Shown in pieces: positions 3,901 to 27,511 of a stretch of 29,156 nucleotides of DNA. This stretch comes from an uncultured Ruminococcus sp. (GTDB taxonomy: Bacteria > Bacillota > Clostridia > Oscillospirales > Ruminococcaceae). The number at the start of each line of letters is the position of its first letter. Position 1 is the stretch's first letter. The stretch is from the NCBI GenBank assembly GCA_946188175.1, contig CAMHUJ010000001.1, positions 1 through 29,156 of the forward strand, given 5' to 3'. The notes under the pieces are model-generated. The model saw only the letters and a list, made by a program, of their open reading frames with translations. It searched no databases and was not told the origin of the DNA. Both the position numbers and the translations under genes were made by a program.

Positions 3901-4085
3901 TTCGTTGACCATCCGAGAAAATTATAACCGGAACGATTCGGAATTGTCGACGTGACCTCTTGCGTGATAGTGTACGGAAACGAGCGTGTATCAGCATACG
4001 GAATTTTTCTTGTCATGGACGCCGGTGCTCCGGTTCCTCCGTTTGCATTATATACTATCGTGAACGATAATTTGACATAAGCCAT
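942..4085 (-). CDS. Multidomain tail / host-recognition protein (two InlB B-repeat-like domains, DUF859-like core, H-lectin/gp53-like domain, Ig-like domain, C-terminal receptor-binding module)
   Basis: 1047 aa; YNANGGTGAP...PNRSGYNFLGWS and FTRSGYQQTGWS repeats; VSVTFDTPFMTQPYVTFS lectin-like segment; ITDQPVSQIVDVGDGATF...YQWY...KFKCVASN Ig motif; lies directly after Tal. Confidence 0.8.
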   Translation of the reverse strand: MAYVKLSFTIVYNANGGTGAPASMTRKIPYADTRSFPYTITQEVTSTIPNRSGYNFLGWSTNASATTPTYSPGSTVSHTFPYNTGSDQSYTMNLYAVWQQSSYVIFYRAGTYGTGTDTSDTKLGGVDLTLKGRIFTRSGYQQTGWSLSADGSGYAYNIGGKYTANAGATLYPYWSIVKSTITSVTDSVPADGSTQGTVEINRPNSNFTHKVVISLGTRSAEYTNVGTSLTFTIPAAWLDQIPTATAAVATVTLTTYNNGSQVGTPDTKSFTVTVPDSVVPTISLTGANVSDNQTVSSWDVLVQGFSKIALTATVTAGSGATISSIVFSGDGVSQTGIGTTVMSELLQNAGSRTWTATITDSRGKTATATLTRTVNEYYPAAVLAFSAFRSTAEGNPSPSGGQYVTAVGNYSFASCAGHNSASVKKIEYKRHTESTWTTGENSAASGTRYTFGTISLLYTYDIRLTVTDALGSTAAYTVNVASVNGVSFGLNGRCARFGGPVQYDDRFECDWDAQFDGQIEAPLFLQTGFIQAAAVEPGTTKTVSVTFDTPFMTQPYVTFSMLSPQTIGMELCTASIWNITETGFSARLTNGYESNRTLGICWIATARKITDVSITDQPVSQIVDVGDGATFAIVAVNATAYQWYMKNQFAFDWVTISGDAAKAPEYSLTNIGTNMNNFKFKCVASNNKGQVESNAAILNVNGATVISDRNPYIKRASAGGMTIGNREIDMLVGGTVTWNQYCDYNEITPTNTWDALRVGISITGHSLTITSNSNTTAQKAATLRDFTSKSNHRYLVTGYITPPSQTYNAVYGLYSGSTADERYIITAGSGRTDISRVFTPSTNGCSFKFLLANATPSGTSAVSEDLMIFDLDEMFGSPIANHIYNLEQANAGSGVAWFKSLFPSTFYARNAGELLSVNASAHVMRDDSDAVIAAYPLDSTVVLHGIPKLDADNKLYYDGDTYESDGTVTRKYGVRAYQTGDVTDGSTMVTDGTTTVYALTTPTTETAYPYQNPQSVDASGTEEYTDSRAVTMPVGHYTEYSDTNLTD

Positions 4086-5803: not shown

Positions 5804-6459
5804 TACAGAGATCCCTCCCTATATGAAAACGTGACCGAAGCGGACCCGGTGATCGTAACGACCAGCGACCCCTGCGTCAATCGCAACCCAGGAATGCGTA
5901 CCGTCGCCGGATACGAACTTGCAGACAACTGCTTCGAGTTCGTTCCCCAAGCAATCGTTACCGCACCACCGATTGTCACGTCCGGAACGACCGGCATTCT
6001 GCCATTCGTCAGCGTCACGGTCCCGCCTCCGGTTTTCGTCACCGTTGTCGCCGTTTTTTTGAATTTATACGGATAGACCAGAGCGCTCATCAGATGTGAA
6101 TGGTCCTTTGATTCGTATTCCGAGACCGTCAGTCGACCGGCCCAATAAAAATCCGGGTCGTTTGAAAACGAGATCTTCACGTCTTGCCCGTGATAGGCGT
6201 TCATGAATGATTGAAAATCCGATTGCCAAGAATCTGACGGATGTTTGCAGTCCAGCGCTAACGTACGAGGCTCATAAAACACCTCGCCAAATTCTTCTGT
6301 GCTGTCGAGCGATCCATTCATGCCAGGAATCTCGTCATAGATGACCTTCGGAGTCGGCGCCGACAGTTTCCGCCATTTCAAATACAGCCCGAACGTCGTG
6401 TCGACCGCAACAAAATCGTTGTCAGCCGGTCCTTTGATGTAAAGACGATCAATATTCAT
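5803..6459 (-). CDS. Distal tail protein (Dit)
   Basis: 218 aa directly after tape measure; EIPGMNGSLDSTE...YEPRTL and NDPDFYWAGRLTV motifs. Confidence 0.8.
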   Translation of the reverse strand: MNIDRLYIKGPADNDFVAVDTTFGLYLKWRKLSAPTPKVIYDEIPGMNGSLDSTEEFGEVFYEPRTLALDCKHPSDSWQSDFQSFMNAYHGQDVKISFSNDPDFYWAGRLTVSEYESKDHSHLMSALVYPYKFKKTATTVTKTGGGTVTLTNGRMPVVPDVTIGGAVTIAWGTNSKQLSASSYPATVRIPGLRLTQGSLVVTITGSASVTFSYREGSL

Positions 6460-8495: not shown

Positions 8496-8792
8496 TGTCC
8501 GAACCTCCAATCTTATTTACGCCTTTTTTGATTCTTTCCATGATTTCCGTTTCGGATTCAACCGGCTTCGATTCACTCTTGACAATATCGTGAAACCACG
8601 GAACGTCCTTCGCTCCGGCTGCGATCTTCGCCATCGCCGCCATATAAAAACGGTACGCCTCGTCCTCGTTCTCTTGATCGAGACGTGATTTGACGTACCG
8701 TATGAATAACCGTGCGCTTACCGGTCCTCGGTATTCTCCGATAGCGGACCAGACGATTCTGCTGCCTCTGTCTGATCCGGCGACGTAAAAAG
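8482..8792 (-). CDS. Tail assembly chaperone extension (gpT-like), reached by probable -1 frameshift from the upstream chaperone
   Basis: Open -1 frame ...VWSAIGEYRGPVSARLFIRYVKSRLDQENEDEAYRFYM...ERIKKGVNKIGGSDNGPI*; no ATG/RBS ahead of the conserved part; CTTTTT at 8792-8787. Confidence 0.65.
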
Positions 8793-9080: not shown

Positions 9081-9899
9081 TCAGGTTTCGTTTGCCGTTG
9101 CGATGATCTCGACAGCACCAGTGAGATTCGCCGCCGGAATAGTTACCTTATGATTCGACGCCGAATATCTCGACGCCGTCACATCGACGCCGCCGACCAT
9201 GACGATTGCGTTTGCGATCGTGTAGCCGGATTCAGCCGTCAGCGTGATCACCAGCTGCGCATTCGTCGGAGCAGACACGCCCTCGAAATCGGACGTCACA
9301 TGAATCAGCGTCTGATTGACGGACACCGCACCGGATCCGACGTCATCGGAGCTGTAAAACTCCATCGGAACGACCGTCTGCGCGGACAGCGATACATGAC
9401 CGGTGATCTCCAGCGATACCTGACCTTTTCCGTTCTTCGTCGTCTGCAACGAGAAACCGCCGGTCGACAGAGCGTTGATCAGTCGGATCGCAACGAAGCC
9501 GCCGTTTGCCTTATCTCCGACCCACCACAGATCGCGGAAATCGGACTGCGACAAATCGCGACGCGGAACAATCTTCGCGGAATTCGTGCCAGGAATATCG
9601 GCAGCACCCAGCGCCAGCTTAATAAGCGCCGGAGAAGTGCCAAGCGCGGTCGTGCTGATCTTGCATTCCCAGCCATCCAGATGCTTGAACTCCTTCAGAT
9701 TATTCGGAGCATTGTCGACATCTTCCGCAAAGTCCGAATAGGTCGGAACGCATGACGGATTGATGCCACCGGTCGTCGCGCAGATGATCGCGGAATCAGC
9801 GATCTGCGGATTTGCCGGATTGAAGCTCGAAAGCAGAACACCCGCGTCAAGCTGCAGTTCATCGAATGCGCTCTGCGGAATAACAGTAAATCTACCCAT
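9081..9899 (-). CDS. Major tail protein with C-terminal Ig-like extension
   Basis: 272 aa; LQLDAGVLL...CATTGGI...GGFSLQTTKNGKGQ core (~190 aa) plus an ~80-aa beta-rich tail. Confidence 0.85.
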   Translation of the reverse strand: MGRFTVIPQSAFDELQLDAGVLLSSFNPANPQIADSAIICATTGGINPSCVPTYSDFAEDVDNAPNNLKEFKHLDGWECKISTTALGTSPALIKLALGAADIPGTNSAKIVPRRDLSQSDFRDLWWVGDKANGGFVAIRLINALSTGGFSLQTTKNGKGQVSLEITGHVSLSAQTVVPMEFYSSDDVGSGAVSVNQTLIHVTSDFEGVSAPTNAQLVITLTAESGYTIANAIVMVGGVDVTASRYSASNHKVTIPAANLTGAVEIIATANET

Positions 9900-9919: not shown

Positions 9920-10294
9920 TTATTTGCTCGTGAAAAACTCAATCTCAAGATTGAGGTAGATCCGTCGAACAGCCGGATCCTCGTCAGACATGCGCTGTGC
10001 AAACGGCGTCCCTCGCTTGATCCACAGATAACCGCTATCTGTCTTGATCAGCTTTCCGCCAAGTCCGATATATTCGGCGATCTGTTGCATTTTCTCGACG
10101 ATCTCGCCCCAGCTCGTTGAACGCATCCACAACGACGCATTCTGCATGATCGGCTCGTCGAAGAATCCTTGCGGTGACGAATACGTGATATATTGCGACC
10201 GCGTTGCAAACGCATTATCCGGAACCGAATTCTCGTCAAACGCGTCCCAACCAAAACCGCGCCAGAAGCTTGTCAATGCCGCCTGTGCATTCAT
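9920..10294 (-). CDS. Tail terminator / tail completion protein
   Basis: 124 aa just upstream of the major tail protein; LWIKRGTPFAQRMSDEDPAVRRIYLN motif. Confidence 0.65.
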   Translation of the reverse strand: MNAQAALTSFWRGFGWDAFDENSVPDNAFATRSQYITYSSPQGFFDEPIMQNASLWMRSTSWGEIVEKMQQIAEYIGLGGKLIKTDSGYLWIKRGTPFAQRMSDEDPAVRRIYLNLEIEFFTSK

Positions 10295-10656
10295 AGCGTC
10301 GAAACCTCCCCGGGTATAGCGTATTCTTCAGCCGTGCAGACCCGCATGTTAATCGTCGCCGTGTCCGGAGTTTTTGCATCCCGCCCGTCAGACGTAACTC
10401 GGAACGTTTTTCCATCGCTCTTGCGCTCAAACATGTCAAACGGTTGCAACGTTTTCGATTTCCGTGTATGAACCGTGTACATGTTCTTCACGCCCTCCGA
10501 CATTCCGATCCGCGCCTGAACCGACGTGTCAAACGTTATCGCCGCTTCGAACGTCGCACCTCGCACGTAGGTCGTGATCTCGCCTCCGTAGCTGTCATTC
10601 ATGCTTATTTTATGAATCATCTGGCACGATTCCATTGCTGCATCGTAAAGGCTCAT
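10291..10656 (-). CDS. Head closure / head-tail adaptor protein
   Basis: 121 aa; DSYGGEITTYVRGATFEAAI...DGKTFRVTS pattern and position in the neck cluster. Confidence 0.65.
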   Translation of the reverse strand: MSLYDAAMESCQMIHKISMNDSYGGEITTYVRGATFEAAITFDTSVQARIGMSEGVKNMYTVHTRKSKTLQPFDMFERKSDGKTFRVTSDGRDAKTPDTATINMRVCTAEEYAIPGEVSTL

Positions 10657-11122: not shown

Positions 11123-12343
11123 TTATGCGTGGTTTACAACATCGACGCCGGTCGTTCTGGTATACAGCGTCTGACCGGAACCGTTCGTGATCGCCATGAC
11201 CATCTTGTGACCAGCGGTGAAGCCGGTGACATTGTCCGCAATGCCGGTCGACAGGACAGGGAAGATCTCCGTCCAGGAGTCATCAACCGCCGCCTTGTAT
11301 GCCGGAGTTGCCGGTGCGGTGCTCGCCTGCGCCTTAACGTAGAACTTCCAGTCGGACTTCAGCGTTGCCGGAGCAGTCACGGTGATCTTCGTACCGGCGG
11401 TCGTGCCAGCGCCACTGGTGAACGTTGCGGAACCAACGGAACCGGACGCTTCTACCTTGACAACCGCGATGCCGTCGATGTACTCCGCCCAGAGCTTCAT
11501 GCCCATGATCGCATAGGTTTCGCCGACCGCATGGCTGTAATAGTAGTCCATCTCGATCTCCGGGAAGTCTGTCAAACCGATCAGATTCGTTTCGCCGTCG
11601 GTCGTGTACTCAAGACCAAGCTGCGCGAATTCGCTGTCGCTCGGATCGATATAATACAGATCGATGTTCTCGATCGGGAGCGCGATCACGGTGCCGCTCG
11701 GAATATCGGTGTCGCCCATCAGGAACAGCGTGGAATAACCCATGAAGTCCTTGACATAGTTGATACCGAACTGCGTCTGCACAGAGATGCCCGCCGCGCC
11801 CAGATACGCATACGCATCGAGCAGATTTGCAAAGCCGACAACGTCGGTCGCCGTCTTGCGGATCTCCTGGAACTTGTTCAGCACAAGACCCTTCGCCATA
11901 GCAAGCGCCATCTGCCAGGTCGTCTGAATGTTGGTCAGCTCGCCGGTCTTGAGGAACGTATAGAACGACGTGAGAACTTCATTCTGCAGCTCGTTCCGGA
12001 ACGCCTCATCGGTTTTCTGCACTGCAACAGCGGCGCCATACTTCGCAACCGCCTCGATCGAAACAGCCTTCGCATACTTCTTGATCGTGACGTCATCGAA
12101 CACGACCGGAGTAACCTCCGCCTGCGAATACGGAATCTCATCTCCCTCAGAAACTGCGCCGCTCTGAAGCGTAACCTTCGCCTTGTTTGCGACCAGCTTC
12201 GTACCAGGTGCCTTGCGAATCGCTCTGGTAATGCCCAGGATCTGCTGGAGCGCCTGCCAGTTCTGCCCGAATACCGTGACAAAGTCCTGTTCACGGATCG
12301 AAGCACTGATATTAGCCTGTTTGGTCAGTCTATCTTTTGCCAT
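11123..12343 (-). CDS. Major capsid protein with C-terminal accessory domain
   Basis: 406 aa; GEIPYS...KKYAKAVSIEAV...ENIDLYYIDP...AEYIDGIAV core plus ~110-aa extension; strong codon bias. Confidence 0.9.
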   Translation of the reverse strand: MAKDRLTKQANISASIREQDFVTVFGQNWQALQQILGITRAIRKAPGTKLVANKAKVTLQSGAVSEGDEIPYSQAEVTPVVFDDVTIKKYAKAVSIEAVAKYGAAVAVQKTDEAFRNELQNEVLTSFYTFLKTGELTNIQTTWQMALAMAKGLVLNKFQEIRKTATDVVGFANLLDAYAYLGAAGISVQTQFGINYVKDFMGYSTLFLMGDTDIPSGTVIALPIENIDLYYIDPSDSEFAQLGLEYTTDGETNLIGLTDFPEIEMDYYYSHAVGETYAIMGMKLWAEYIDGIAVVKVEASGSVGSATFTSGAGTTAGTKITVTAPATLKSDWKFYVKAQASTAPATPAYKAAVDDSWTEIFPVLSTGIADNVTGFTAGHKMVMAITNGSGQTLYTRTTGVDVVNHA

Positions 12344-12895: not shown

Positions 12896-13504
12896 TTATT
12901 CCTTTCCGGACGCTTCAATCTTCGCAAGCTCCTGCATTCGCTGAACAGCATCGAGCTTGTATCTGCCCTTATCGTCCTTAGCATAGATCTCTTCTCTCGT
13001 TTTCAGAACCGAGCCACCATTCGCCGGAGGATTGACCGGATCCGCGCCTTTTGTCGATTCGGACACAATCAGCCCCTTGTAATCACCGGCGATCAGCGCA
13101 TCAAGCGCCTTTGTATCCTTGATCTTGTCACCGTCCAGCTCCAGCGCAGAGATCTCGTCCTTCGCACCGCGCATAGCGATCTCAAGGTTCCCGCCCTTGA
13201 TGCCCTTCGCTTCGAAATAGGCACGACCGGCCTTTGTTTTGGCCGCTGCGATTTCCTTTTCGGTGACGTCCTTCTTGTACGCGTCAAACTCACCCTTGAG
13301 CTTGTCATACTCGGACTTGTAGTCCTTGCCGCCCTTCGATGCTTCAAGCTGTTTCTTGACCTCATCGTAATCGGCTGCCTTCTCCTCCGCGATCCGGATC
13401 TTTTCCTTCAGACCGTCCACGGTGTCCGTGTGCATTTCCACGATCGAATCGACCTGTTCGTCGGTCAAGCCCATCGCCTTCAGCGCTTTTCTTGTCAAAG
13501 CCAT
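12896..13504 (-). CDS. Capsid scaffolding protein
   Basis: 202 aa; MALTRKALKAMGLTDEQVDSIVEMH start, coiled coil, GADPVNPPANGG near the C-terminus. Confidence 0.85.
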   Translation of the reverse strand: MALTRKALKAMGLTDEQVDSIVEMHTDTVDGLKEKIRIAEEKAADYDEVKKQLEASKGGKDYKSEYDKLKGEFDAYKKDVTEKEIAAAKTKAGRAYFEAKGIKGGNLEIAMRGAKDEISALELDGDKIKDTKALDALIAGDYKGLIVSESTKGADPVNPPANGGSVLKTREEIYAKDDKGRYKLDAVQRMQELAKIEASGKE

Positions 13505-13908: not shown

Positions 13909-14877
13909 TTATCCGCCTCTTTTCAAAAGGATTTTACCGTCGCTCGTTACGACAGCACGATCGCGCTCCGGAGCATGGACCCTCAGGCTCGCAAACGAAA
14001 CGACCTTATAGCCAAGCGTGCACCGGCAGTTGTAGACCTCCTCCGGTTCTCCGTTCGGATCCCCAGGATATTCAAGCCCGTTCGAGAACTTCTCGTCCGG
14101 ATCAATCTGCTCGCCGTCAAGTTCGAGATGACTGTCACGCGTCCGATCGTCTTTTGTCGAGATCCAAATCTTCTGCGTGTGCACGCCTTTCTCCTCGGCT
14201 TCTTCGATCATATCCATCCGACCTTTGTTCTCTGCACTCGTGACCGTCGTCCTCGCATTCCGGATAGCGCTCGTTTTATTCATGCCGAGAACGTTCCAGA
14301 GGCGATTTGCAATGTTCGGCATACTGTCCCCTTGCAGAATCCCTTGCAAAACTTCGGAATTGACCTTCTGCGTGTTCCAGCGCACGTCCTTCACCCCGTC
14401 GATCACCTTGTACGGCAGCAGCGTTTTATCTGACAGCGCCAGGTTCCGGATTGTCGAAGCGTCGACCAACTCAAACGAATATCCTCTCAAGTTGCTGCTG
14501 ACCCGCGCTGCGACCGCATTATAATTCCGCGCATACACCTCCGGCAGTTTACCGTTGACATATGCAGCAGCCGTTTGATTGACGCGGTTGATCTCCTTTG
14601 CGAGGTCGTTCGTCAGCTCCTTATAATGCGAATCGGTGATCGTCAGCTCTTTCTTTGCTTTCGACAACCGGATCCCCGCACGCTTGATCGCCTCCTTGTC
14701 ACTGGACGCCTTTGCAGCATCATACGCCTTTTGAGCTTCCTCAACACGCTTTCCGACCGATGCCATATAATCACGCCACTTTTCGCCAACCTCTTTTTCT
14801 GCGCGACGATAAATCCGCTCAAGCTCTCGCTCCAGCTTCTCGATCTCTTTGTCCGTCCAAGCGTGCGCCGCGTCCAT
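13909..14877 (-). CDS. Minor capsid / head morphogenesis protein (MuF, SPP1 gp7-like)
   Basis: 322 aa after the portal; KIWISTKDDRTRDSH...YPGDP...EVYNCRC motif. Confidence 0.9.
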   Translation of the reverse strand: MDAAHAWTDKEIEKLERELERIYRRAEKEVGEKWRDYMASVGKRVEEAQKAYDAAKASSDKEAIKRAGIRLSKAKKELTITDSHYKELTNDLAKEINRVNQTAAAYVNGKLPEVYARNYNAVAARVSSNLRGYSFELVDASTIRNLALSDKTLLPYKVIDGVKDVRWNTQKVNSEVLQGILQGDSMPNIANRLWNVLGMNKTSAIRNARTTVTSAENKGRMDMIEEAEEKGVHTQKIWISTKDDRTRDSHLELDGEQIDPDEKFSNGLEYPGDPNGEPEEVYNCRCTLGYKVVSFASLRVHAPERDRAVVTSDGKILLKRGG

Positions 14878-16280
14878 TATTCAGCGACCTCCTCCGGCGC
14901 CGGTTCCGGCTCCTGTTCCGGCTCTGGTTCTTCTCTCGCATACCGCGACGCGTCCTCCTCCAGCCGGTCCCTCATGACGGCATCGACCGCGTCAACGTCG
15001 CCCATGATAGTCAGCAGCTTCTTCGTCGTGTATTTCTCCGACGTGTATTCCGCGGCCTGCAGCACGTTCTGTATTTCCTCGTTCTTATTGATGATCGTAT
15101 CGCGCTGATAAGACGGATCATCATCAACACCGAGCAGTTTCAGCAGCCCCTTTACAAAGGTTGTGACGCACGTCTCCAGCATTGACGCCTTAATATTCAT
15201 CGGCTCGTATGCCGCCTCGATCTGCGTCGCCGTTGCAGCACCGGACGCGATATTCTTGACATCCAATGCCATGAAATCGTCGAATAGCTGACTGCGCAAC
15301 CTCTCAAGCGACGTCTCCGACGCCTGGAATGGCACGTCGACCTGTTGCGGGGTGATCGACTGCCCGTCATCCGTGTGCGCGACGTGGATCGTTTTCAGAC
15401 GGTCAAGAAACGCCTGATCATCAGCCGCATTCATTCCGTCAGCGTTTTGAATAATCCAGTAAATCAAGGCGCCGTCGCTGACATTGTTGACGAGCTGCGA
15501 CAGCATCAGGTCATAAGCATCAAGCGTCGCTTTACGTCCGACCAGCTCACTCTGCCGGTTCACGTTGAAAAGCGGAACGATCGGCAGCGTCGCCCAGTTC
15601 TCACCGGACAGAATCTCCGGTCCGGACACCTCCGATTGACCGATGTTCAGCTTATACGGACGCTTCTCTTGCAGCACGGTCATCTCATCCGCCTTTCGTT
15701 TGATGTACTCCGTGAATCCGTCCGGCTCAAACAGCGTCGCACGCAGCGGTTTCGTGTTGTCAATCTGCCAATACCGGACACCCGCCATCAGCGCACCATT
15801 CTCCTCATCATACAGCGGAGCAAAGGAAACCTCGCCGTCAGTCCCGCAGATCGGAAGCACCTCGACGTGATCCACGTTCAAGAAACCGAATGCAGCTCCG
15901 GCGTTCAGCGCCTTAATCGCGATCATCTGCACAATATGGTCGAACTGAGCACCGCCCAGCTTGTCCTTTGTCGTGGAATCCTTGAAACTGATACCGTTTG
16001 CCAGCAGATACATGACCGTCTGCGATATGAAATAGTAATAATACCGACACGGAATCTTGTGATTCGCCGCGATCGGATCCAGCTGCGCACGCCCCAGCGC
16101 ATCATACATGATCTTCTCCGCGTTCATGATGGTCGGATTCAACCCACGGAAATACAGATTCGCGTCCTTTGCGATCCTAAATAGCTCGCTGCCCTCATGC
16201 TGCTGGATCACCTGTTGAATGAATGCCATCCGGTCAGCTTCGCGCTCACCAACCGCCAGCAGATCCTGATATGTTTTCAT
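14877..16280 (-). CDS. Portal protein (SPP1-like)
   Basis: 467 aa directly after TerL; typical size and motifs (IDAYD-like LDAYDLMLS, ATQIEAAY). Confidence 0.9.
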   Translation of the reverse strand: MKTYQDLLAVGEREADRMAFIQQVIQQHEGSELFRIAKDANLYFRGLNPTIMNAEKIMYDALGRAQLDPIAANHKIPCRYYYYFISQTVMYLLANGISFKDSTTKDKLGGAQFDHIVQMIAIKALNAGAAFGFLNVDHVEVLPICGTDGEVSFAPLYDEENGALMAGVRYWQIDNTKPLRATLFEPDGFTEYIKRKADEMTVLQEKRPYKLNIGQSEVSGPEILSGENWATLPIVPLFNVNRQSELVGRKATLDAYDLMLSQLVNNVSDGALIYWIIQNADGMNAADDQAFLDRLKTIHVAHTDDGQSITPQQVDVPFQASETSLERLRSQLFDDFMALDVKNIASGAATATQIEAAYEPMNIKASMLETCVTTFVKGLLKLLGVDDDPSYQRDTIINKNEEIQNVLQAAEYTSEKYTTKKLLTIMGDVDAVDAVMRDRLEEDASRYAREEPEPEQEPEPAPEEVAE

Positions 16281-17530
16281 CAGTACACACCTCCAAAGAC
16301 AGATTTGTAACCACCGGAATCGGTGTCTTTGTTCTTTTTCTTTCGAATCATGCTTGCCAAGCTGTCTGGAGCATCGTCATGGTCCGCGTTCTCGTTGAAA
16401 TCGCAGATCTGGTCAATGTACTCATCATCGGTTCCGTCCACAAACACCACGTTCTTCCACTCGCCCTTCAAGTGCGTCACGATCTTCATGTACTTATTCT
16501 CCGATTCGTGATAGCTGACAGCCCGAAGCCCCTTATTTTTCAGGTCTTTTGCCAAATATCCCTTGTCGGCGTTATCTTCACAATAGACTTTACCACACAA
16601 ATATCGCGAATACAAGTCTATAATTTGAGGTTCAACGGCATCAACCGCCTTTTGCCACATCTTCCCAAGCACATAATGCTTTCCTCCGGCGTTCCGCATG
16701 ATCGTCATCGCCGTGTAGTCCTCGCCACCATACGCCGCATCGATGTGCATCTCGCCCTGCTCGACCGGGTCGGTAAATATAACATCGTCGTCTGCAATGA
16801 TTTTCAGCTCATAGTTACAAGCAAACAAAGCCGCAGTCATCGAAGCCCGCAGCTTTTCTATCTTTTCGTCCGACAAAAGCCCTGTCTTTTTGTAATCGTA
16901 AACGTGGATATTGTCCATCAAAGTGAACACGTCGTCCTTGTGCCACTTTGTCCCAAGGTTTATAATCCGCCCTCCTGGATTCCGAATGTTCTGCAATTCC
17001 TGATACTGTAACTTCGTCTTTTCGCGTTCAGCGCGGCTTGTTCTGTCTGTCACGTTACAAATATCGTCAGTTATCACAATCGTAGCATGCTTGCCAGTAA
17101 TTGACGACTTCAAACCGATACCGAGCAACTGCGGAGAACCCATCGGCGAAGTCCATAAATTTGTGCTTATATTGTCCGCCGCGCTTTTTACAATCGACAA
17201 ATGACAGTTATGCGACAAAAAGCAGATGTCGTCCAAAACCGGAAGCGATAGTACCTTTTTAACCATGCCGATCATCTCGGTCACGTCATTGTCAGCTTTG
17301 CGCAGAAATATGATATTGTCGGTCGGTTGAAATACCATCAAAAGAGCGATAGCCACGGCAAGGCAAGAGGACTTGTAGCCGCCTCGGTGCGCCATCAAGG
17401 TATAATCTCCATCTCCGAAAACCATTTCCCTGATCCAATCACCGTGTACTGGTTTCAAGTCCTTAAATCCAACTGCAATCCCTATACATTCGGGACGCTC
17501 ATATATCAGCCGTGCAACATCTTCCGTCAT
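16280..17530 (-). CDS. terL: Terminase large subunit
   Basis: 416 aa; Walker A-like AHRGGYKSS, IITDDI Walker B, HIDAAYGG and HDDAPDS nuclease motifs. Confidence 0.92.
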   Translation of the reverse strand: MTEDVARLIYERPECIGIAVGFKDLKPVHGDWIREMVFGDGDYTLMAHRGGYKSSCLAVAIALLMVFQPTDNIIFLRKADNDVTEMIGMVKKVLSLPVLDDICFLSHNCHLSIVKSAADNISTNLWTSPMGSPQLLGIGLKSSITGKHATIVITDDICNVTDRTSRAEREKTKLQYQELQNIRNPGGRIINLGTKWHKDDVFTLMDNIHVYDYKKTGLLSDEKIEKLRASMTAALFACNYELKIIADDDVIFTDPVEQGEMHIDAAYGGEDYTAMTIMRNAGGKHYVLGKMWQKAVDAVEPQIIDLYSRYLCGKVYCEDNADKGYLAKDLKNKGLRAVSYHESENKYMKIVTHLKGEWKNVVFVDGTDDEYIDQICDFNENADHDDAPDSLASMIRKKKNKDTDSGGYKSVFGGVY

Positions 17531-17883
17531 TCTTTCTTGATGCTTTCAAACAAACTTCGCAAGCGAGCTGCCGATTCCTCCACGTTCATTTCCGCTTTCA
17601 TCTCCAACTTATCGACCGGCTTCTCTCCGATCGTGTCTCTGATCGTCTCGAACGCCCTTGCAACGCTTCCGGCATTATTCCCTTCCGTCGCTTCATTGAT
17701 CAACGCAGCGGCAACCGACCTCTGAACATCCTCGTTTTCGAGCATCAAAAGCAGCTCCTCTTTCAAGGTCTTGCGTCTGCGCTTCGCCTCTCCGGACGCG
17801 ATCCCTCCCTTTCGACCATTTTCCACGGCTTTTTCTCGGCTTTGATCGCTCGTAAATGGCTTCAAATTCTGCTCACTCGGCAT
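17527..17883 (-). CDS. terS: Terminase small subunit
   Basis: 118 aa; QNLKPF...NGRKGGIASGEAKRRRK motif; stop overlaps the TerL start. Confidence 0.8.
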   Translation of the reverse strand: MPSEQNLKPFTSDQSREKAVENGRKGGIASGEAKRRRKTLKEELLLMLENEDVQRSVAAALINEATEGNNAGSVARAFETIRDTIGEKPVDKLEMKAEMNVEESAARLRSLFESIKKE

Positions 17884-17950
17884 AATAACACCTCATTTCA
17901 TACGGCTTCAACGCCGTCACCGGCAAATACTCGATTTTCAGGTCAGTCAT
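17873..17950 (-). pseudogene. Remnant of a ParB-N / DNA methylase-type gene (25 aa)
   Basis: AAGGAGGT RBS; MTDLKIEYLPVTALKPYE then MRCYYAE* reading through the terS RBS. Confidence 0.5.
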
Positions 17951-18224
17951 TTGTTACCTCCTTAATAGCAAGGGCAGCATATCCTTCTTGCAGACCATAT
18001 CCGTGCAAAACATAAGTAATCTCATATTCACGATCCGCAACCGGATGCGATACTTTTTCGTCTCCATGCGGAAATTCAAGATAAGGTCCTCCAAGAACCG
18101 GAACAAACCGTATGCGATCTCCTTTCTGATAGCATCGATCATCTTTCCTGATCTCAAACGTCTTTTCTCCATTCAGCACGGCGTCGCAAAACTCTATCTT
18201 CAGTTTTATCCTATGGATCTTCAT
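17943..18224 (-). CDS. DUF3850 / ASCH-like domain protein
   Basis: 93 aa; IHRIKLKIEFCDAVLNGEKTFEIRKDDRCYQKGD...EITYVL...GLQEGYAAL. Confidence 0.85.
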   Translation of the reverse strand: MKIHRIKLKIEFCDAVLNGEKTFEIRKDDRCYQKGDRIRFVPVLGGPYLEFPHGDEKVSHPVADREYEITYVLHGYGLQEGYAALAIKEVTND

Positions 18225-18236
18225 ATTTCCACCTCC

Positions 18237-18265
18237 ACAATATCACATTTTTCTTGTCAAGTCAA
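18237..18265 (-). promoter_or_regulatory. SigA-type promoter for DUF3850-terminase genes, directly after the tRNA CCA end
   Basis: TTGACT (18265-18260), 17 nt, TG-n-TATTGT (18242-18237); an overlapping TTGACA lies 5 nt downstream. Confidence 0.55.
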
Positions 18266-18266
18266 A

Positions 18267-18343
18267 TGGTCGGGGATCCGCGATTCGAACGCGGGACCAC
18301 CGGTTTATAAGACCGGCACTCTAACCGGCTGAGTTAATCCCCG
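18267..18343 (-). tRNA. tRNA with anticodon UAU (tRNA-Ile, AUA-reading), 77 nt, encoded CCA
   Basis: CGGGGAT/ATCCCCG acceptor stem, ACTC/GAGT D-stem, CCGGT-CT TAT AA-ACCGG anticodon arm, CCGCG-TTCGAAT-CGCGG T-arm, discriminator A then CCA. Confidence 0.92.
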
Positions 18344-18350
18344 CCAATCC

Positions 18351-18524
18351 TCACATCTTCGGTCTGATCAGCACCGAGCCGTCAGCGCGAATGTCGATCT
18401 CATACTTGTCATTGTCCGGCTTCACCGGCTCCGGCTTCAGATCCGCGATCTTTTGTGCCGCTATGTCCGATCCGTCATGCAGCGCGATTTTGTACGCGTC
18501 TGCCTTTTTGATGTAGTCAGTCAT
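18351..18524 (-). CDS. Hypothetical protein (57 aa)
   Basis: MTDYIKKADAYKIAL start; ATG overlaps the end of the upstream ORF; AAAGGAG RBS. Confidence 0.6.
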   Translation of the reverse strand: MTDYIKKADAYKIALHDGSDIAAQKIADLKPEPVKPDNDKYEIDIRADGSVLIRPKM

Positions 18525-18845
18525 CGCTTCTCCTTTCTCCGTCAGCGCAGTACCAATCATCGGCTTGCACCTTGTTATGGTTCAACTCGCAAACATTGAA
18601 CCGCACGTTTTCTCCGTCAACATATCGATGTATGCACTCGCCGCACCGCACCACAGGCACAGCGTCAACGGTCGGCATAGCGTCAAGCGTCAGTTTCGCT
18701 TCGGCGAACACAGAAAAGCGGCACTTTTTTGACCATACATTTCCTCGTTATCCATTTCCCTTGCGGCGTTCATCAACTCCAAGCAAGCATCTTGCCGTGT
18801 TTTCATTTCAGCCGCATACGCATCCGCATCAATGTATCTGCTCAT
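18517..18845 (-). pseudogene. Frameshifted phage hypothetical gene (MSRYIDADA...MPTVDAVPVVRCGEC family)
   Basis: 5' half MSRYIDADAYAAEM...QKSAAFLCSPKRN* and 3' half SVFAEAKLTLDAMPTVDAVPVVRCGEC are in different frames, joined by a -1 shift in an A6 or T4 run near 18714-18730. Confidence 0.6.
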
Positions 18846-18850
18846 CGTGT

Positions 18851-19045
18851 TCACCTCTTAACATGGACTTTCGTGTCGATTCCTACCTTCTTTGCAATGT
18901 AGTTTGCGGCGTTCATATTGCCACAAGCATAGTAGTAATAATTTATTCTTCCGAATCCTTTCGGTGCGTTGTTTACATCGTCATACTCGTTTACGATATG
19001 CTCGATTGCCTTAACAACCTTTTTCTTGCTGATTAATCCGAACAT
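18851..19045 (-). CDS. Hypothetical protein (64 aa)
   Basis: ORF coupled to both neighbours; AGGAG RBS; lower GC. Confidence 0.6.
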   Translation of the reverse strand: MFGLISKKKVVKAIEHIVNEYDDVNNAPKGFGRINYYYYACGNMNAANYIAKKVGIDTKVHVKR

Positions 19046-19404
19046 TATTTATCTTCTCCTATCTTCATCTTTGCGCCGCAGTTCGGGCAGTAGTTCATGT
19101 TATTCTCGCTCGGTGTTCCTGCATTTAGCACCCACGGTTCTCCGCAAGCAGAACATACCCACGCATAACTGTTAAATCCCATTTCCGTTTCAATCCACTC
19201 GCCCTCTTTTGGCATCAGTTTCGCAATCCTCTTTTCATCCGCTTCAAGCGCGTAGGCGGCATCGCGCATCAGTTCTGCTTTGCATTCGTCCGTAATCATA
19301 TCTTCGTTCCACATTGGACATCTGTACGATTCATCAACGCACATTTCGTGCCGTTCGTCCTCGCTACCACACCACCGCAACGCCTTAATCAGTTCTGTGT
19401 TCAT
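19045..19404 (-). CDS. Hypothetical protein with C-terminal zinc ribbon
   Basis: 119 aa; EGEWIE...CSACG...NYCPNCGAKM. Confidence 0.75.
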   Translation of the reverse strand: MNTELIKALRWCGSEDERHEMCVDESYRCPMWNEDMITDECKAELMRDAAYALEADEKRIAKLMPKEGEWIETEMGFNSYAWVCSACGEPWVLNAGTPSENNMNYCPNCGAKMKIGEDK

Positions 19405-20321
19405 TCTGCGTCACCTCTCCTTTTGTATGCTTTTCGGTTCTCGTTTGAATAGTCCTCAAATCGCGTTGACCGATGCACGGCTTTATTGTTGCACCACCGC
19501 GCAAGCCGTTTCTGATCCTCGGTCGGCTCAATGTTGTTTGTGAAATCTCGGTACGGTTGTCCAAACGGTTGTACTCCGATCTCGTCCATCGCCATGATCC
19601 GCGCAATCGATTCCTCGACATCTTGAATCAGCGTGTAAACAAAGATTCGGTACGGCTTTACGCCGTTCTCTTCCAGGTACGAAACGCACCGTTTCAATAT
19701 CGGGATCATCGCGTATGTGTCGCATGCGAAGCGCAACGTGCCGTCAATCCACTTTTCCTTTGATAGAATCTTTGCGATCTCCGGCGTGACCAACCTTGCG
19801 TCCATAGCTTGATTGAAATCGATTCGGACATCCTTGCCGATCATGTCCTCGATCTGCGCGATTCCATGCTCCGACGCAAGCACGTTATTGTCGAGGAACA
19901 CGATGTCGCGCGAATCGGGACGCTTGATCTTGTCCCATGTGTTGACGGAGTGAATCCATCCCTCTTTCTTCGGTACGATGCACCACGGACATTTTCGGAT
20001 GCACCCTCGCGTCAAGAATCCGACCGCGAACGAATACTGCGGATAAAGCGAATAGTCGGGGAACGTATATTCGATCTCTGCCGGAAGATTTTCGTACAAT
20101 CCGTATCCTGTGCCACCCTTGACGATCTGCCTTGCGTTGATTGCCCATTGATAGTCCTCGGTGAATGTGAACACCTTGCTCATATACACCTTGTCATATT
20201 CGGGCATCAACGGTTCGTACCATTCCACCTCATCGCCTTGTGCTTTATGCCACGCGGACAGCTTCATCAGCGCAAGGTTCGGAAAGTTATGACCGTCAAC
20301 ATCGATCAATCCGATGTGCAT
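19401..20321 (-). CDS. Radical SAM protein
   Basis: CxxxCxxC motif (GCIRKCPWC); MHIGLIDVDGHNFPNLALMKLS start with GGAGG RBS; DNN and DFNQAMDARL motifs. Confidence 0.85.
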   Translation of the reverse strand: MHIGLIDVDGHNFPNLALMKLSAWHKAQGDEVEWYEPLMPEYDKVYMSKVFTFTEDYQWAINARQIVKGGTGYGLYENLPAEIEYTFPDYSLYPQYSFAVGFLTRGCIRKCPWCIVPKKEGWIHSVNTWDKIKRPDSRDIVFLDNNVLASEHGIAQIEDMIGKDVRIDFNQAMDARLVTPEIAKILSKEKWIDGTLRFACDTYAMIPILKRCVSYLEENGVKPYRIFVYTLIQDVEESIARIMAMDEIGVQPFGQPYRDFTNNIEPTEDQKRLARWCNNKAVHRSTRFEDYSNENRKAYKRRGDAE

Positions 20322-20368
20322 CCTTCCACCTCCGGCGCGTTCTCGCTGCACTTGATCCATTCACTCAT
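20306..20368 (-). pseudogene. Remnant of a DUF551-like gene (20 aa)
   Basis: GAGGAGG RBS; MSEWIKCSENAPEVEGCTSD*, overlapping the radical SAM start. Confidence 0.45.
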
Positions 20369-20380
20369 TGTGTCCTCCTC

Positions 20381-20584
20381 TCATTGCTGATCCTCCTTGC
20401 CCTTTCTAATCCACTCGACAAAATCCATCTTGCAATCGTCGCAAAGATCGAATTCGTAAAAGTCACTCAAAATAGATTCTTTAACCGCCGCATTTATAAT
20501 GATCTCTGGAAATTTCAAATTCATAAAAGACGGCTGCTTTTTTATCTCGGCGCCGCACCGATCACAAACGATTTTCTTTCCCAT
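20381..20584 (-). CDS. Small zinc-binding hypothetical protein
   Basis: 67 aa; CDRCG and DLCDDC pairs. Confidence 0.7.
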   Translation of the reverse strand: MGKKIVCDRCGAEIKKQPSFMNLKFPEIIINAAVKESILSDFYEFDLCDDCKMDFVEWIRKGKEDQQ

Positions 20585-20585
20585 T

Positions 20586-20834
20586 TCAACCCCTTCTTTT
20601 GAACTGACCGGCTACCGGACACGTCGACCAATGCGGAATGTATCCGGTCCCGGTTTCCTTTTCAGATCTCGGATCCAACTCGCAGCTGACAAGATCGCCC
20701 TGCCGCGTGACGATCTTCTGCTTTGCCTTTGGCGCTTCCCAGTACGGTACAAGCTCCGGATCGCACGGCATCGCCTTTCCTGATCGCGTCATGATCCAGA
20801 TGATCTCGCGACCGCACCCTTTGCACTTTCCCAT
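20586..20834 (-). CDS. Small Cys/His phage protein
   Basis: 82 aa; CKGCGREIIWI...GKAMPCD...PHWSTCP. Confidence 0.75.
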   Translation of the reverse strand: MGKCKGCGREIIWIMTRSGKAMPCDPELVPYWEAPKAKQKIVTRQGDLVSCELDPRSEKETGTGYIPHWSTCPVAGQFKRRG

Positions 20835-22399: not shown

Positions 22400-24217
22400 T
22401 CACCCTATCAGATCGCGCATTTCATCCTTGCAAATGCAGACGGTCGGCACAACCGTTCCGGCGATCAAAGCGTTCTTTGTTCGGCGTTCTTTGTCCGTTT
22501 TGAGGATCCCTTTTCTCTTCGCCCAGGACAGAAAAGACTTCGCATTGAACCCGGCATTTTGCATTTCACGGTCGAACACGGATTTTATCACAAAGATGTT
22601 ATTTGCCTCGACCTTTCCCCAAACTTCCGCCTTATACTCACCGAAATCATTCGGCTTGAAATGATTTGTGTTGACCGCAACCATTTCCATGACCCACTCG
22701 GCAGCGCGTACATTCGCGTCAATCTCTCCTCGCTTCGTCATCAGCCGGATCATTTCGTCAACCGTCAGTTGACATCCATCCTGGAAGAAAAGAGTGGACG
22801 CCACATAATCCGCAATCAAAATCGCCGATAAAGATGCAGCTTGTTTGTCCTCGCCTCCGGCCGCCTGCAGCTCGTGATAAATCTCTACACGCAGATCATT
22901 GATCATCTTCATGTTCTCCGGATCCCGAATGTACTCCACAAATTCACGGCCTGCAAAGCCGTAATTTTCGTTAATAATCGCGCAAAGACCGACCAGATCG
23001 GAATATATCTTATCCGCACATTCAATCTCGATCGCACGGACCGAAGCGCCGGACATAGAATTCGCATTGATGATCGGATATTCGCCGGTCGTCAGAATGC
23101 AATTCCTCCATGTGACGATCCTCCGGATGCCGCCGGTCTTTGTTCCACGAACACGGCCTTGCCCTTCGGTCAGCTTGTACAGAATCCGGTCATAGTCCTT
23201 AATACCGGACGCCGCCTGGATTTGCAGCTCGTCCATGCACATAGGCATACTGTTCAGGAACGCCGCAATCATCTCTTGACCGACATCGGTTGAATTGAAT
23301 GACATAACGTAATCGCCCAGCTTCGGTGACGCCCACACAGACGCAGCTATCATCAGCGACACGGTCTTGCCTGTGCCTTGACCGCCATATGCGTGAACGA
23401 AGAACGGCAGCAGTCCGCACGGCTCAATCAGCGCTGACGCGAAAGACGCCGCCAGGAAGATCCGACCGATGCTCTTTTCTGCACGGACCTTTTTCATTGC
23501 GTCAATCCATTTCTGACGATCTCCATCTGACCGGACAGAATTGAACATATGCCGGAAGTTCGCTTCTCCGTCAAAAATCAGCTTGTCAACATATGGAGAA
23601 AAGCCGTGATCGAGAACCCAACCAAGCCGACCGACAGAATGTTCCTCGCTTATCGTGTCATAATTCAACTGCTCCATAGTCAGCAGATACGATGACAGAA
23701 GCTTCGCGTTTTCACTCGTCACGACAACGCCATAAGCAGCCAGCTGCAGGATCTGATTCGATGACGCGACCACCGACTTTTCAATGATGATCGACCGCCA
23801 GGACCGCCCCTTCTTATATGCGATCTCCAGCCGCTCGTCTCCCTCATCAATATTGATCAACCTCCGCACCGGCATGATCGGATGGACGCAGATCGTGATT
23901 TCATAACCGAAACGATCGGACATCCGGACACCGTAATCGTCGCAAATATACTGACCTGAAAAAAGCTCAACCGGCTGCGCGTCAAACTTCGTCGCATTGT
24001 CAAGGCTCTGCCCCTGCTTCTTCATCGTACTCTCAAGATAGGCATTCCAAAGAGCCATGAATGTCCGAACACCGACTGCGCCGGCCTGCATCTTCATCCG
24101 CTGGATCTGCTGCTGCAACGCGAATTTATCATCCTTAAACTGCGCAAGCCAAGCATAAGGCTCCGATGTTGTCAAATACTGTTCAGCCGTAAACTCCGGC
24201 ATTATTGCCTGTTCCAT
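22400..24217 (-). CDS. DUF927-domain replicative helicase (Cch-like)
   Basis: 605 aa; Walker A GGQGTGKT, Walker B CMDELQ, TEGQGRVRG, ILTTGE. Confidence 0.85.
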   Translation of the reverse strand: MEQAIMPEFTAEQYLTTSEPYAWLAQFKDDKFALQQQIQRMKMQAGAVGVRTFMALWNAYLESTMKKQGQSLDNATKFDAQPVELFSGQYICDDYGVRMSDRFGYEITICVHPIMPVRRLINIDEGDERLEIAYKKGRSWRSIIIEKSVVASSNQILQLAAYGVVVTSENAKLLSSYLLTMEQLNYDTISEEHSVGRLGWVLDHGFSPYVDKLIFDGEANFRHMFNSVRSDGDRQKWIDAMKKVRAEKSIGRIFLAASFASALIEPCGLLPFFVHAYGGQGTGKTVSLMIAASVWASPKLGDYVMSFNSTDVGQEMIAAFLNSMPMCMDELQIQAASGIKDYDRILYKLTEGQGRVRGTKTGGIRRIVTWRNCILTTGEYPIINANSMSGASVRAIEIECADKIYSDLVGLCAIINENYGFAGREFVEYIRDPENMKMINDLRVEIYHELQAAGGEDKQAASLSAILIADYVASTLFFQDGCQLTVDEMIRLMTKRGEIDANVRAAEWVMEMVAVNTNHFKPNDFGEYKAEVWGKVEANNIFVIKSVFDREMQNAGFNAKSFLSWAKRKGILKTDKERRTKNALIAGTVVPTVCICKDEMRDLIG

Positions 24218-24339: not shown

Positions 24340-24368
24340 ATTATACCGCAGAAAAATGAGAATGTCAA
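24340..24368 (-). promoter_or_regulatory. SigA consensus promoter for the helicase
   Basis: TTGACA (24368-24363), 17 nt, TATAAT (24345-24340). Confidence 0.85.
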
Positions 24369-24934
24369 CTCGCAAAGCGCTTTTTCTCAAATTCCGCAAG
24401 CGCCTCAAGCGCTTCATCAGCTCTTGCACGCGCCCGATCACGCCTTGACGCAGCAATCACAAAGCATTCGGACCATTCTTCGTCCGGATCCTTTGGCGCC
24501 GCTTCCGAATACGCAAGTTCTATCAGCCGCAGCGCATACAAAGCGTCGTTCCATTCGGTGACCAGTTTCGCGTACTGTTCTTCAAGCTCTCTCTCGCGCC
24601 GCCTGCGTTCCCATGCTTCGCGGTTTTGGGCGATTCGCTCTGCGTTCGACAGATTACCTTCTCGAATCAAACCAAGCCGAAAATCGTCGTTCAGGCGCTT
24701 ACACGCGTCGCCAACGGAGCAGTCGAACAGTTTCATGACCAGATCGATCACAGAACCGGACGCTCCGCAGCCGAAACAATGGAATCCGCGTTCGCCTTTG
24801 TATGCTTTGAACGATGCTGTTTTCTCGTTATGGAACGGACAGCGAGCAAAACCGTGATAATTCAGTTCGATGCCGTAATGACTGCACGCATCCTGACAGG
24901 AAACGCGCTTCTTAATTTCCGTGCTGATCCTCAT
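24365..24934 (-). CDS. CHC2 zinc-finger (DnaG primase zinc-binding domain) protein
   Basis: 189 aa; ARCPFHNEKTASF...FHCFGCGASGSVIDLV; no TOPRIM domain. Confidence 0.85.
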   Translation of the reverse strand: MRISTEIKKRVSCQDACSHYGIELNYHGFARCPFHNEKTASFKAYKGERGFHCFGCGASGSVIDLVMKLFDCSVGDACKRLNDDFRLGLIREGNLSNAERIAQNREAWERRRRERELEEQYAKLVTEWNDALYALRLIELAYSEAAPKDPDEEWSECFVIAASRRDRARARADEALEALAEFEKKRFAS

Positions 24935-25388
24935 GATACTCCCCTTTCAAAATTTCCATGATCGTCTTACCAGTGGACAGTTTGTCACAGAACAGGAACT
25001 TCACTCCATAAGCCATCCGGATCCGGAACATCTCCCGAACCAGCGCCGCGCCGGTGACCGGAGAATGCTTCGACCGCCAGCGCAGCACATCTTCCGTTCC
25101 TTTAATTCCGCGATGCTCGATCAGCACGATCAGCGTGATCCGCGCCGCATAAGCACGTCGAACCTCGCGCATGAATCGGGCGTGATCTTCGCGGTTCGTC
25201 AGATTCTTCGCCAGCTCGTCAAGGTTCTGTTTACGGTCAACGGAGATCGATCCGCCTTCCAGCATATAGTCCCCAACGTCCAGCGCCTGAACGCGGTATT
25301 CGATACCGTGCCGGTCAAAGTACGCTTTGAGATGCCGGTCCGCGTTTCCGGCCTGCGTCCACTTCTCGCGACTATCAACGATCAACAT
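24912..25388 (-). CDS. ERCC4-domain nuclease (putative resolvase)
   Basis: 158 aa; IVDSREK...LDVGDY...DRKQNLDEL motif. Confidence 0.85.
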   Translation of the reverse strand: MLIVDSREKWTQAGNADRHLKAYFDRHGIEYRVQALDVGDYMLEGGSISVDRKQNLDELAKNLTNREDHARFMREVRRAYAARITLIVLIEHRGIKGTEDVLRWRSKHSPVTGAALVREMFRIRMAYGVKFLFCDKLSTGKTIMEILKGEYHEDQHGN

Positions 25389-26435: not shown

Positions 26436-26711
26436 TCATTCCTCCAATTCATCAATGATTTCTTGTAATGATTTACCGCAAAAATCGTGTTCTGCATAAA
26501 TGTCATAGGGATCATGATCTCCGTCGTATTGATACCGCGCAATCTCCGCAGCAGATCGAGACGATATATACGATCCTGTGTTGCCGGAAACATAAGCGGA
26601 ACAATCTTCGGTGCAGTTTCTTCCAAATGTATGCCCTTTGCTTCTTCCGATTTTTTGCAATCGTCTGCAAGCTTTCAAATGGATACAATCATCCATGCAT
26701 TCAAAAGCCAT
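26436..26711 (-). CDS. Cys-rich hypothetical protein (91 aa)
   Basis: MAFECMDDCIHLKAC start at TAATG overlap with AAGGAG RBS (ORF-track start at 26807 is too early); lower GC. Confidence 0.7.
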   Translation of the reverse strand: MAFECMDDCIHLKACRRLQKIGRSKGHTFGRNCTEDCSAYVSGNTGSYISSRSAAEIARYQYDGDHDPYDIYAEHDFCGKSLQEIIDELEE

Positions 26712-27511
26712 TATTGCAACTCCTTCGCCAAGTATGCCGGAAGCCCAAGCACATTGATCTGATTCTGCGGTCCGAGATAACCATACCAGTTTCCGGACGT
26801 CTTGCAATCGTGATAGATGCCAAGCAGTTCGCGGAACGTATCATATCCGCGCTGCACAAGCAGCTGATCGGCTGCAAGCACATTTACCGCATACGGCGGA
26901 TCCTTCTCCTGCGCGATGAAGATGAACACCGCATCCCGATCCATGACACGCCGAACTGCCTCGGTGTACATAGCCGCCTGGAAGTCATAGCCGTAATTGA
27001 TCGCGGACCGGATGAACGATTCAGTCGACGCATCGCTCGTCGTTTTGTAGTCGATCACGACCGCACCGCTCGACAATGGCGTGAAGCAGTCCAACCGGAC
27101 CTTGCACTTTTCGCCGGTGAGCTCATCGGTCCAGAACAGTGGGATCTCATGCTTGCCGGACAGCAGCTTCATGACCATATCGTTTTGCATCAGCGCATTC
27201 CGCATTCCGACCGCTTTGTCATAGTCAGCGGATTTCACGATCATCTTTTCACCATTCATCTCCATGAACAGATCCCATGCTGCCTTGCCTTCCTTTGTCC
27301 GTCGGTCACAGTCCGGAGCGACCGCAAACTCATCGCCGAACGTCTCCGGCTCCAGGACAAGCTTGTGAGCCATCTGACCGAAGATCAAAGCCGGTGTCAG
27401 CTCTTCCGGGTGCTGCTCCTCATACATGAATTTCTCCGGCGATCCTTCATGAAGACGCCACAACTGCGACCGGCTGACACCTTCCGCTGCGCGGTATTCC
27501 TGTTCAGTCAT
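26711..27511 (-). CDS. PD-(D/E)XK exonuclease (DUF3799 / RecE-like)
   Basis: 266 aa; EYRAAEGVSRS, KVRLD, IDYKTT, YGYDFQAAMY motifs. Confidence 0.88.
   Translation of the reverse strand: MTEQEYRAAEGVSRSQLWRLHEGSPEKFMYEEQHPEELTPALIFGQMAHKLVLEPETFGDEFAVAPDCDRRTKEGKAAWDLFMEMNGEKMIVKSADYDKAVGMRNALMQNDMVMKLLSGKHEIPLFWTDELTGEKCKVRLDCFTPLSSGAVVIDYKTTSDASTESFIRSAINYGYDFQAAMYTEAVRRVMDRDAVFIFIAQEKDPPYAVNVLAADQLLVQRGYDTFRELLGIYHDCKTSGNWYGYLGPQNQINVLGLPAYLAKELQ

Follow-up and report, generated by a model that had tools for sequence, protein, structure and literature searches.

Gene content of the window and structure of the tRNA gene

The window analysed here is a stretch of 29,156 bp that makes up the entire contig C1 of a metagenome-assembled genome (MAG) of 525 contigs, which is 75% complete and has a GC content of 53.4%, compared with 50.7% for the window. 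All recognisable genes in the window are phage genes and all lie on the minus strand. From the high end of the contig these comprise a PDDEXK exonuclease (26711-27511), an ERCC4-type nuclease (24912-25388), a primase zinc-finger protein (24365-24934), a DUF927 primase/helicase (22400-24217) and a 319-aa radical-SAM protein (19401-20360; phrog_9298, E 1e-100) with the motif CIRKCPWC and no Pfam match, the gene for which sits 1 kb upstream of the tRNA gene described below. Five small ORFs follow (18351-19404, running from 19045-19404 down to 18351-18560), the last of which encodes 69 aa, has no PHROG match and lies directly upstream of the tRNA. On the other side of the tRNA are a DUF3850 (PUA/ASCH-like) gene of 93 aa with a GC content of 0.43 (17943..18224; Pfam PF12961, 76 bits; phrog_986, annotated as 'RNA-binding') and a 118-aa ORF in the small-terminase position (17527..17883; phrog_2412), which by tblastn is conserved beside the large terminase gene in loci carrying TerL relatives. 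TerL itself (16280..17530; phrog_38, E 8e-66) opens a late structural module that extends to the low end of the contig and consists of the portal (14877-16280), a head morphogenesis protein (13909-14877), scaffold (12896-13504), major capsid (11123-12343), major tail (9081-9899), tape measure (6459-8510), Dit (5803-6459), a tail protein in the Tal position (4085-5803) and a large distal tail protein (942-4085). Judged by this gene content, the window is a siphovirus-like phage contig with the tRNA at the boundary between the replication module and the late, packaging module. Searches of approximately 35 larger ORFs against PHROGs or Pfam revealed no integrase, and the contig ends do not overlap, so that it is not circular; these features indicate a partial phage genome.

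ARAGORN predicted a single tRNA in the 29,156-bp window, a tRNA-Ile(tat) at 18267..18343 on the minus strand. Rfam RF00005 matched the same gene at 18343-18270 with 68.1 bits (E 4.7e-13, against a gathering score of 29), and the alignment covered the full model (1-71) with zero non-canonical pairs flagged, placing the gene within the tRNA family. The acceptor stem (CGGGGAU/AUCCCCG) contains C1-G72 and G4-C69; U8 and A14 are present, the D loop contains GG, and the D stem (ACUC/GAGU) contains A10-U25 and U12-A23. The anticodon stem (CCGGU/ACCGG) has five Watson-Crick pairs, including G29-C41, and closes a loop C-U-UAU-A-A with U34, A37 and A38. The variable loop is UGGUC, G15 and C48 are placed for the usual tertiary pair, and the T arm (CCGCG-UUCGAAU-CGCGG) is followed by the discriminator A73 and an encoded CCA. 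The anticodon UAU occupies 18307..18309 on the minus strand (U34 = 18309; ARAGORN, tRNA index 35), and the 7-nt loop CUUAUAA has U33, U34-A35-U36 and A37, as expected of a UAU tRNA-Ile. C34 is the substrate of lysidine synthesis by TilS; here position 34 is T (18309), so the gene is not a TilS-dependent tRNA-Ile2 (k2C-AU). It is a genuine, well-formed phage tRNA gene, and ARAGORN, Rfam and the letters themselves agree on the intact 77-nt cloverleaf, with TAT anticodon, A37/A38, U12-A23, A73 and CCA, that an earlier, sequence-only reading of this DNA had described.

The same reading had placed the start of the tRNA 7 nt past an upstream stop and had seen no separate promoter. Both observations held: the stop is the TGA (18353-18351) of the 69-aa ORF (18351..18560), the spacer to tRNA position 1 runs from 18344 to 18350 on the minus strand, and a simple consensus scan of 17400-20600 found no sigma-70-like site upstream of the tRNA on its strand. 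The tRNA occupies an operon-like position and, as it lacks a promoter-like site of its own, is most likely transcribed with the upstream genes. A promoter-like site on the minus strand (TTGACT-17-TATTGT with an extended -10 TG, 18237..18265; a consensus match only) begins 2 nt past the tRNA CCA and faces the DUF3850 and packaging genes, for which it could serve as a late or moron promoter; since the scan returned 3 sites compared with 3.7 expected in shuffled sequence, this site is only a hint.

A variable cassette, the candidate host and ATA codon use

The tRNA, the promoter-like site and the DUF3850 gene together form a variable cassette of 405 bp (17946..18350, minus strand), delimited by comparison with Logan contigs from other gut metagenomes. 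Contigs resembling the flanks were recovered from other ruminant and gut metagenomes at 85-99% identity, and three Logan joints bypass the tRNA. One runs from 17945 to 18351 with 52 other letters between, so that the DUF3850 gene, the promoter-like site, the tRNA and the 7-nt spacer are exactly removed; the others run from 17950 to 18476 (171 letters between) and from 17961 to 18529 (536 letters between). The tRNA region (18230-18399) is retained in another contig of the same run. A tRNA-Ile was absent from this place in all 14 of the loci with TerL relatives (IMG/VR and MAGs labelled Ructibacterium, Clostridia and Lachnospiraceae; 50-67% identity), three of which carry a tRNA-Gln, one of these together with a tRNA-Thr. 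The existence of relatives that lack the cassette indicates that the tRNA is dispensable and accessory, and the joints and the TerL relatives without tRNA-Ile together indicate that its gain or loss is recent. Phages related to this one thus occur both with and without the cassette in the same kind of sample and offer a natural comparison for the worth of the tRNA. We also considered DUF3850 and tRNA as a recurrent pair and rejected it, since tblastn found no DUF3850 beside other tat tRNAs in the fetched loci.

The window is the largest contig of a very fragmented MAG (G000) and has no sequence link to the other contigs. We found no CRISPR spacer or shared sequence between the window and the other 524 contigs of the bin, and a search of 44 genomes from the genus gave no TerL relative; the host is therefore unproven, and the codon comparison below carries that caveat. 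The place of the window in this bin may be a binning artefact. A TilS gene is present in the bin itself (171.5 bits; cut-off 93.6), as is one for an isoleucyl-tRNA synthetase (IleRS) whose C-terminus is DUF5915 and which lacks the zinc-binding domain, a type-2 architecture also seen in all five genomes of the genus that were checked. The Trp905/Arg865 rule that governs acceptance of UAU applies to type-1 IleRS (PMC3575796) and hence not to this enzyme. Organisms that use UAU naturally and have no tilS, Bifidobacterium among them, have a eukaryote-like (type-2) IleRS (PMC3575796), and IleRS2 of P. megaterium is more stringent on anticodon variants than IleRS1 (PMC13752280).

The ATA codon is used 7.3 times per 1000 codons in the 22 long ORFs of the window and 6.9 times per 1000 in all 41, compared with 7.6 per 1000 in the long ORFs of the rest of the MAG (binomial p 0.44, with the host assigned by binning only). 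Late genes average 8.0 per 1000 and early genes 4.8. The highest density in the window is that of the DUF3850 gene (3 ATA in 94 codons, 31.9 per 1000), followed by the ORF at 10291-10656 (24.8), TerL (21.6), the tail protein at 942-4085 (13.4), the tape measure (13.3) and the ORF at 2-931 (12.9); the major capsid, major tail, head-morphogenesis (13909-14877) and Dit genes contain no ATA at all. The suggestion that ATA codons cluster in AT-richer tail modules is accordingly only partly right: the large distal tail protein and the tape measure are ATA-rich, but so are TerL and DUF3850, the major tail gene has none, and ATA density rises generally as gene GC falls (Spearman rho -0.54, p 0.001). 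A high ATA content is thus a mark of low-GC genes, which have probably been exchanged between phages. In a model reportedly due to Bailly-Bechet et al. in 2007, a phage tRNA compensates for a codon that is more frequent in the phage than in its host. Phage ATA use equals that of the bin, so no codon-usage gap of this kind exists against it (6.9-7.3 compared with 7.6, again for a host taken from binning). The proposal that the tRNA supports ATA-rich phage modules is consequently not supported by this comparison, which showed neither a phage excess over the bin nor any ATA in the major capsid and major tail genes.

The UAU anticodon in phages and cellular relatives

We searched cellular genomes with a pattern combining the loop CUUAUAA with a canonical T loop, covering 150 genomes of the bin's family and all 44 other genomes of its genus. 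A reversed control pattern gave about as many matches as the real one, and a single match proved to be a tRNA, so that a real tRNA-Ile(UAU) was present in one of about 190 other genomes of the family (G187). Phages gave a different picture. The exact anticodon arm was found in 16 IMG/VR contigs, 11 of which carry an ARAGORN tRNA-Ile(tat), and the pattern CTTATAA...GGTTCGAATCC in at least 120 IMG/VR loci, with an ARAGORN tRNA-Ile(tat) in 100 of the 120 listed. In 24 of these 100 listed contigs it was the sole tRNA of the fetched locus. Two IMG/VR genes with the same anticodon arm (L026:3775-3861 and L027:10262-10352) are tRNA-Ile(tat) of 87-91 nt with a long extra arm.

Among published surveys, UAU accounts for one of ten prophage isoleucine tRNAs in Latilactobacillus curvatus (PMC10688831), and the main text of Morgado & Vicente 2019 contains no anticodon counts for phages. 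The statement in a review that the anticodons missing from phage tRNA sets are the same as those missing from bacterial sets (PMC8007984) is not borne out for UAU by our IMG/VR scan. The earlier view that UAU is rare thus stands for cellular bacteria, with one occurrence in about 190 family genomes, and falls for phages, with at least 100 IMG/VR contigs. Because UAU tRNAs are common in phages, the window tRNA is ordinary: it is one more member of a large, widespread and known class of phage-borne tRNA-Ile(UAU) and not an exceptional solution. Taken alone it matters little, and UAU should not be treated as rare in a phage setting.

Close copies of this particular gene were scarce. INPHARED phages contained no close match to the window tRNA, the best being approximately 80% identical and to tRNA-Lys and tRNA-Arg; BLAST found no match in 40 relatives; a 40-nt tRNA pattern with N at position 34 returned nothing from metagenome contigs, and a 23-nt pattern returned two CAU tRNAs only. 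Nearest to the window tRNA among 782 collected tRNAs were phage Ile(tat) genes and CAU tRNAs of the tRNA-Ile2 type. The nearest phage copies (L139, L202 and L146) share C1-G72, A10-U25, the UGGUC variable loop and A73 with it, and the metagenome CAU tRNAs L086 and L087 match it throughout the anticodon arm and variable loop apart from C34. Between positions 8 and 48 the window tRNA differs from these two Ile2-type tRNAs at five positions, two of which form the compensatory pair 10-25. With the anticodon arm masked, Ile(tat) genes made up 19 of the 40 nearest tRNAs compared with 15% of the whole set, a proportion biased by how the set was gathered. On these sequence comparisons, the body of the window tRNA is classed as that of a tRNA-Ile2 with U at position 34. 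Statistics of the 1-72 pair over phage tat tRNAs were discarded as too noisy, since ARAGORN gene ends vary.

The aminoacylation identity of the tRNA had been regarded as open on account of its departures from E. coli identity elements. MetRS needs C34, LysRS and AsnRS need U35, ArgRS needs C35 and ThrRS needs G35, and the window tRNA has neither G3-U70 nor a long variable arm. With A35-U36, A37, A38 and A73 present and the rules of the other synthetases pointing elsewhere, only IleRS would be left to charge it. The identity set of E. coli IleRS was reportedly established by Nureki et al. in 1994; of its elements the window tRNA keeps A37, A38, A73 and U12-A23, whereas C4-G69 and C29-G41 are replaced by G4-C69 and G29-C41, although these rules come from a type-1 IleRS and the enzyme of the candidate host is type 2. 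The departure from the E. coli pairs is therefore real, but its relevance is doubtful given that the IleRS of the candidate host genus is of type 2, and by the known identity rules isoleucine would be the sole plausible charging.

The single cellular UAU tRNA merits separate description. G187, a 99% complete genome of the bin's genus, carries a chromosomal tRNA-Ile(UAU) at C6:16494-16567 (L048:16494-16567, minus strand) in a cellular context, next to a gene for a dockerin/DUF4434 protein and a two-component system. This tRNA is an ortholog of the third CAU tRNA of the genus (84% identity over the full length, with the same acceptor stem; compare L065:205-278 and L053:150-223), and that CAU tRNA is missing from G187. 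G187 also has no TilS: the TilS family model gave only a paralog-level match there (72 bits), and the TilS protein of G004 likewise found only a paralog at 25% identity, whereas the same query gave 64% in the bin and 56% in G017. Four other species of the genus keep both tilS and the CAU tRNA, and they and G187 alike have a type-2 IleRS. From its gene content, G187 looks like a case of natural tilS loss with a C34-to-U34 switch in the type-2 IleRS clade of a ruminant-gut Firmicute genus. A genus that combines type-2 IleRS with a tilS-less UAU species is a possible system for studying the reorganisation of AUA decoding. The tRNA of G187 resembles the window tRNA in positions 27-38, which are identical (CCGGUCUUAUAA), and in G29-C41, U12-A23 and A73; it differs in being chromosomal, in encoding no CCA, in an overall identity of approximately 73% and in an acceptor stem (GGGCC.../...GGCCC) like that of the tRNA-Ile2 of the genus.

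Proposed role and closest known systems

The reading that we consider probable is that the gene is an accessory tRNA of a phage of ruminant-gut Firmicutes, co-transcribed with the upstream genes and acting as a TilS-independent decoder of AUA. The tRNA would be transcribed together with the upstream ORFs, probably being cut from the transcript of the 69-aa ORF, with RNase P cleaving at the 5′ end and 3′ trimming proceeding back to the encoded CCA. Position 37 would carry t6A, and host IleRS is predicted to charge the tRNA with isoleucine by way of A35, U36, A37, A38 and A73. As its U34 requires no lysidine, the charged tRNA would then decode AUA independently of TilS and of the species-specific tRNA recognition of that enzyme. 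The suggestion that the phage tRNA bypasses TilS is to this extent supported, in that a tRNA with U34 needs no TilS. On B. subtilis ribosomes, an isoleucine tRNA whose U34 is unmodified shows strong binding to AUA but weak binding to AUG, and a misincorporation rate of about 1 in 1000 can be tolerated (PMC3919564); misreading of AUG need therefore not be prohibitive for a phage. The benefit would probably be a modest amount of extra AUA decoding for low-GC, horizontally exchanged genes such as those for TerL, the tape measure, the distal tail and DUF3850, and freedom from host TilS recognition may plausibly account for the frequency of the class in phages.

The tRNA could instead be a near-neutral passenger, acquired together with the low-GC DUF3850 cassette from a phage of higher AT content, that is poorly charged or superfluous in the present host and on its way to being lost. 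Related phages lack the cassette or have other sequence in its place, the protein-coding gene of the cassette has a GC content of 0.43 and the top ATA density of the window, there is no ATA excess over the bin, and the tRNA is absent from the 14 TerL-relative loci, all of which would fit such an origin. Decay of the gene should have left defects, however, and this cloverleaf has no mismatch and keeps all of its tertiary-pair positions; moreover, the class is widespread in phages and is often the sole tRNA of its locus, which argues for selection. We therefore think a passenger origin unlikely. A broader idea, which we hold to be distinctly unlikely, is that UAU has been selected in phages for freeing the tRNA from TilS and its acceptor-stem rules, that it works best in type-2 IleRS clades, which may accept U34, and that phage UAU tRNAs could make tilS dispensable and seed its chromosomal loss as in G187.

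Phage tRNAs are known to rescue cleaved host tRNAs, as with T4 against PrrC and T5 against the PARIS and retron systems, and the window tRNA might in the same way replace a host tRNA-Ile2 that has been cleaved, depleted or left unmodified through an anticodon nuclease or loss of TilS activity. For this reading there is only that general precedent, together with the fact that a UAU loop would differ from the lysidine loop where a nuclease would read it. To our knowledge no nuclease acts on tRNA-Ile2, and none was described in the literature consulted; the genes identified beside the tRNA include none for defence or counter-defence, and a single tRNA in a variable cassette fits evasion no better than codon supply, so that we regard defence evasion as highly unlikely. 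It is very improbable that the true base at position 34 is C, giving an ordinary TilS-dependent tRNA-Ile2, or G. The window does come from a metagenome assembly in which one base decides the reading, and CAU tRNAs with the same anticodon arm do exist (L086 and L087), but at least 100 independent phage contigs have exactly this CUUAUAA loop, so nothing calls for an error; a low-depth Logan contig from another study that spans 18230-18399 with five differences, none at the anticodon among those listed, adds a weak argument in the same direction. Finally, although many temperate phages integrate into tRNA genes, an integration-site remnant (attP) or a chimeric junction to host sequence can be given next to no credence, as the tRNA is complete and flanked by phage genes in both directions, no integrase appeared among the approximately 35 larger ORFs scanned, and the bin contains no second copy of the tRNA.

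Read as an accessory, TilS-independent AUA decoder, the window tRNA has its closest counterparts in the tRNA-Ile(UAU) genes of IMG/VR phages (L139:1750-1825, L202:13407-13480 and L146:112-185) and of the L. curvatus prophage (PMC10688831), which share the loop CUUAUAA, A73, a class-I size and often an encoded CCA. These phage and prophage copies are at most approximately 80% identical to it and lie mostly in the tRNA arrays of large phages, whereas the window tRNA is the lone tRNA of a 405-bp cassette in a siphovirus-like phage represented by a partial contig of 29 kb.

Cellular systems with a U34 isoleucine tRNA are more distant. Like the window tRNA, the tRNA-Ile2(UAU) of Mycoplasma mobile (Taniguchi et al. 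2013, PMC3575796) is a genomic UAU gene, and it decodes AUA without TilS, as predicted here for the phage tRNA. The M. mobile tRNA is, however, cellular and essential in an organism that lacks tilS, and it has co-evolved with a type-1 IleRS (Arg865) and a ribosome that rejects AUG (PMC3575796), whereas the window tRNA is a phage gene whose candidate host keeps tilS and has a type-2 IleRS. The suppressor of a B. subtilis tilS deletion, tRNA-Ile1 G34U (Kohrer et al. 2014, PMC3919564), is likewise an isoleucine tRNA with U34 and supplies AUA decoding in a Firmicute; its U34 is unmodified and binds AUG weakly. That suppressor is a laboratory mutant of a GAU tRNA (PMC3919564), in contrast to the phage tRNA, whose nearest type is Ile2 (CAU). 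A redundant UAU tRNA exists beside tilS and tRNA-Ile2(CAU) in Lactobacillus casei and L. plantarum (PMC3575796; Tomikawa et al. 2018 as cited in PMC10688831), and the same state would arise if the phage infects the organism of the bin, with the difference that the lactobacillar genes are chromosomal and the gene in the window is phage-borne.
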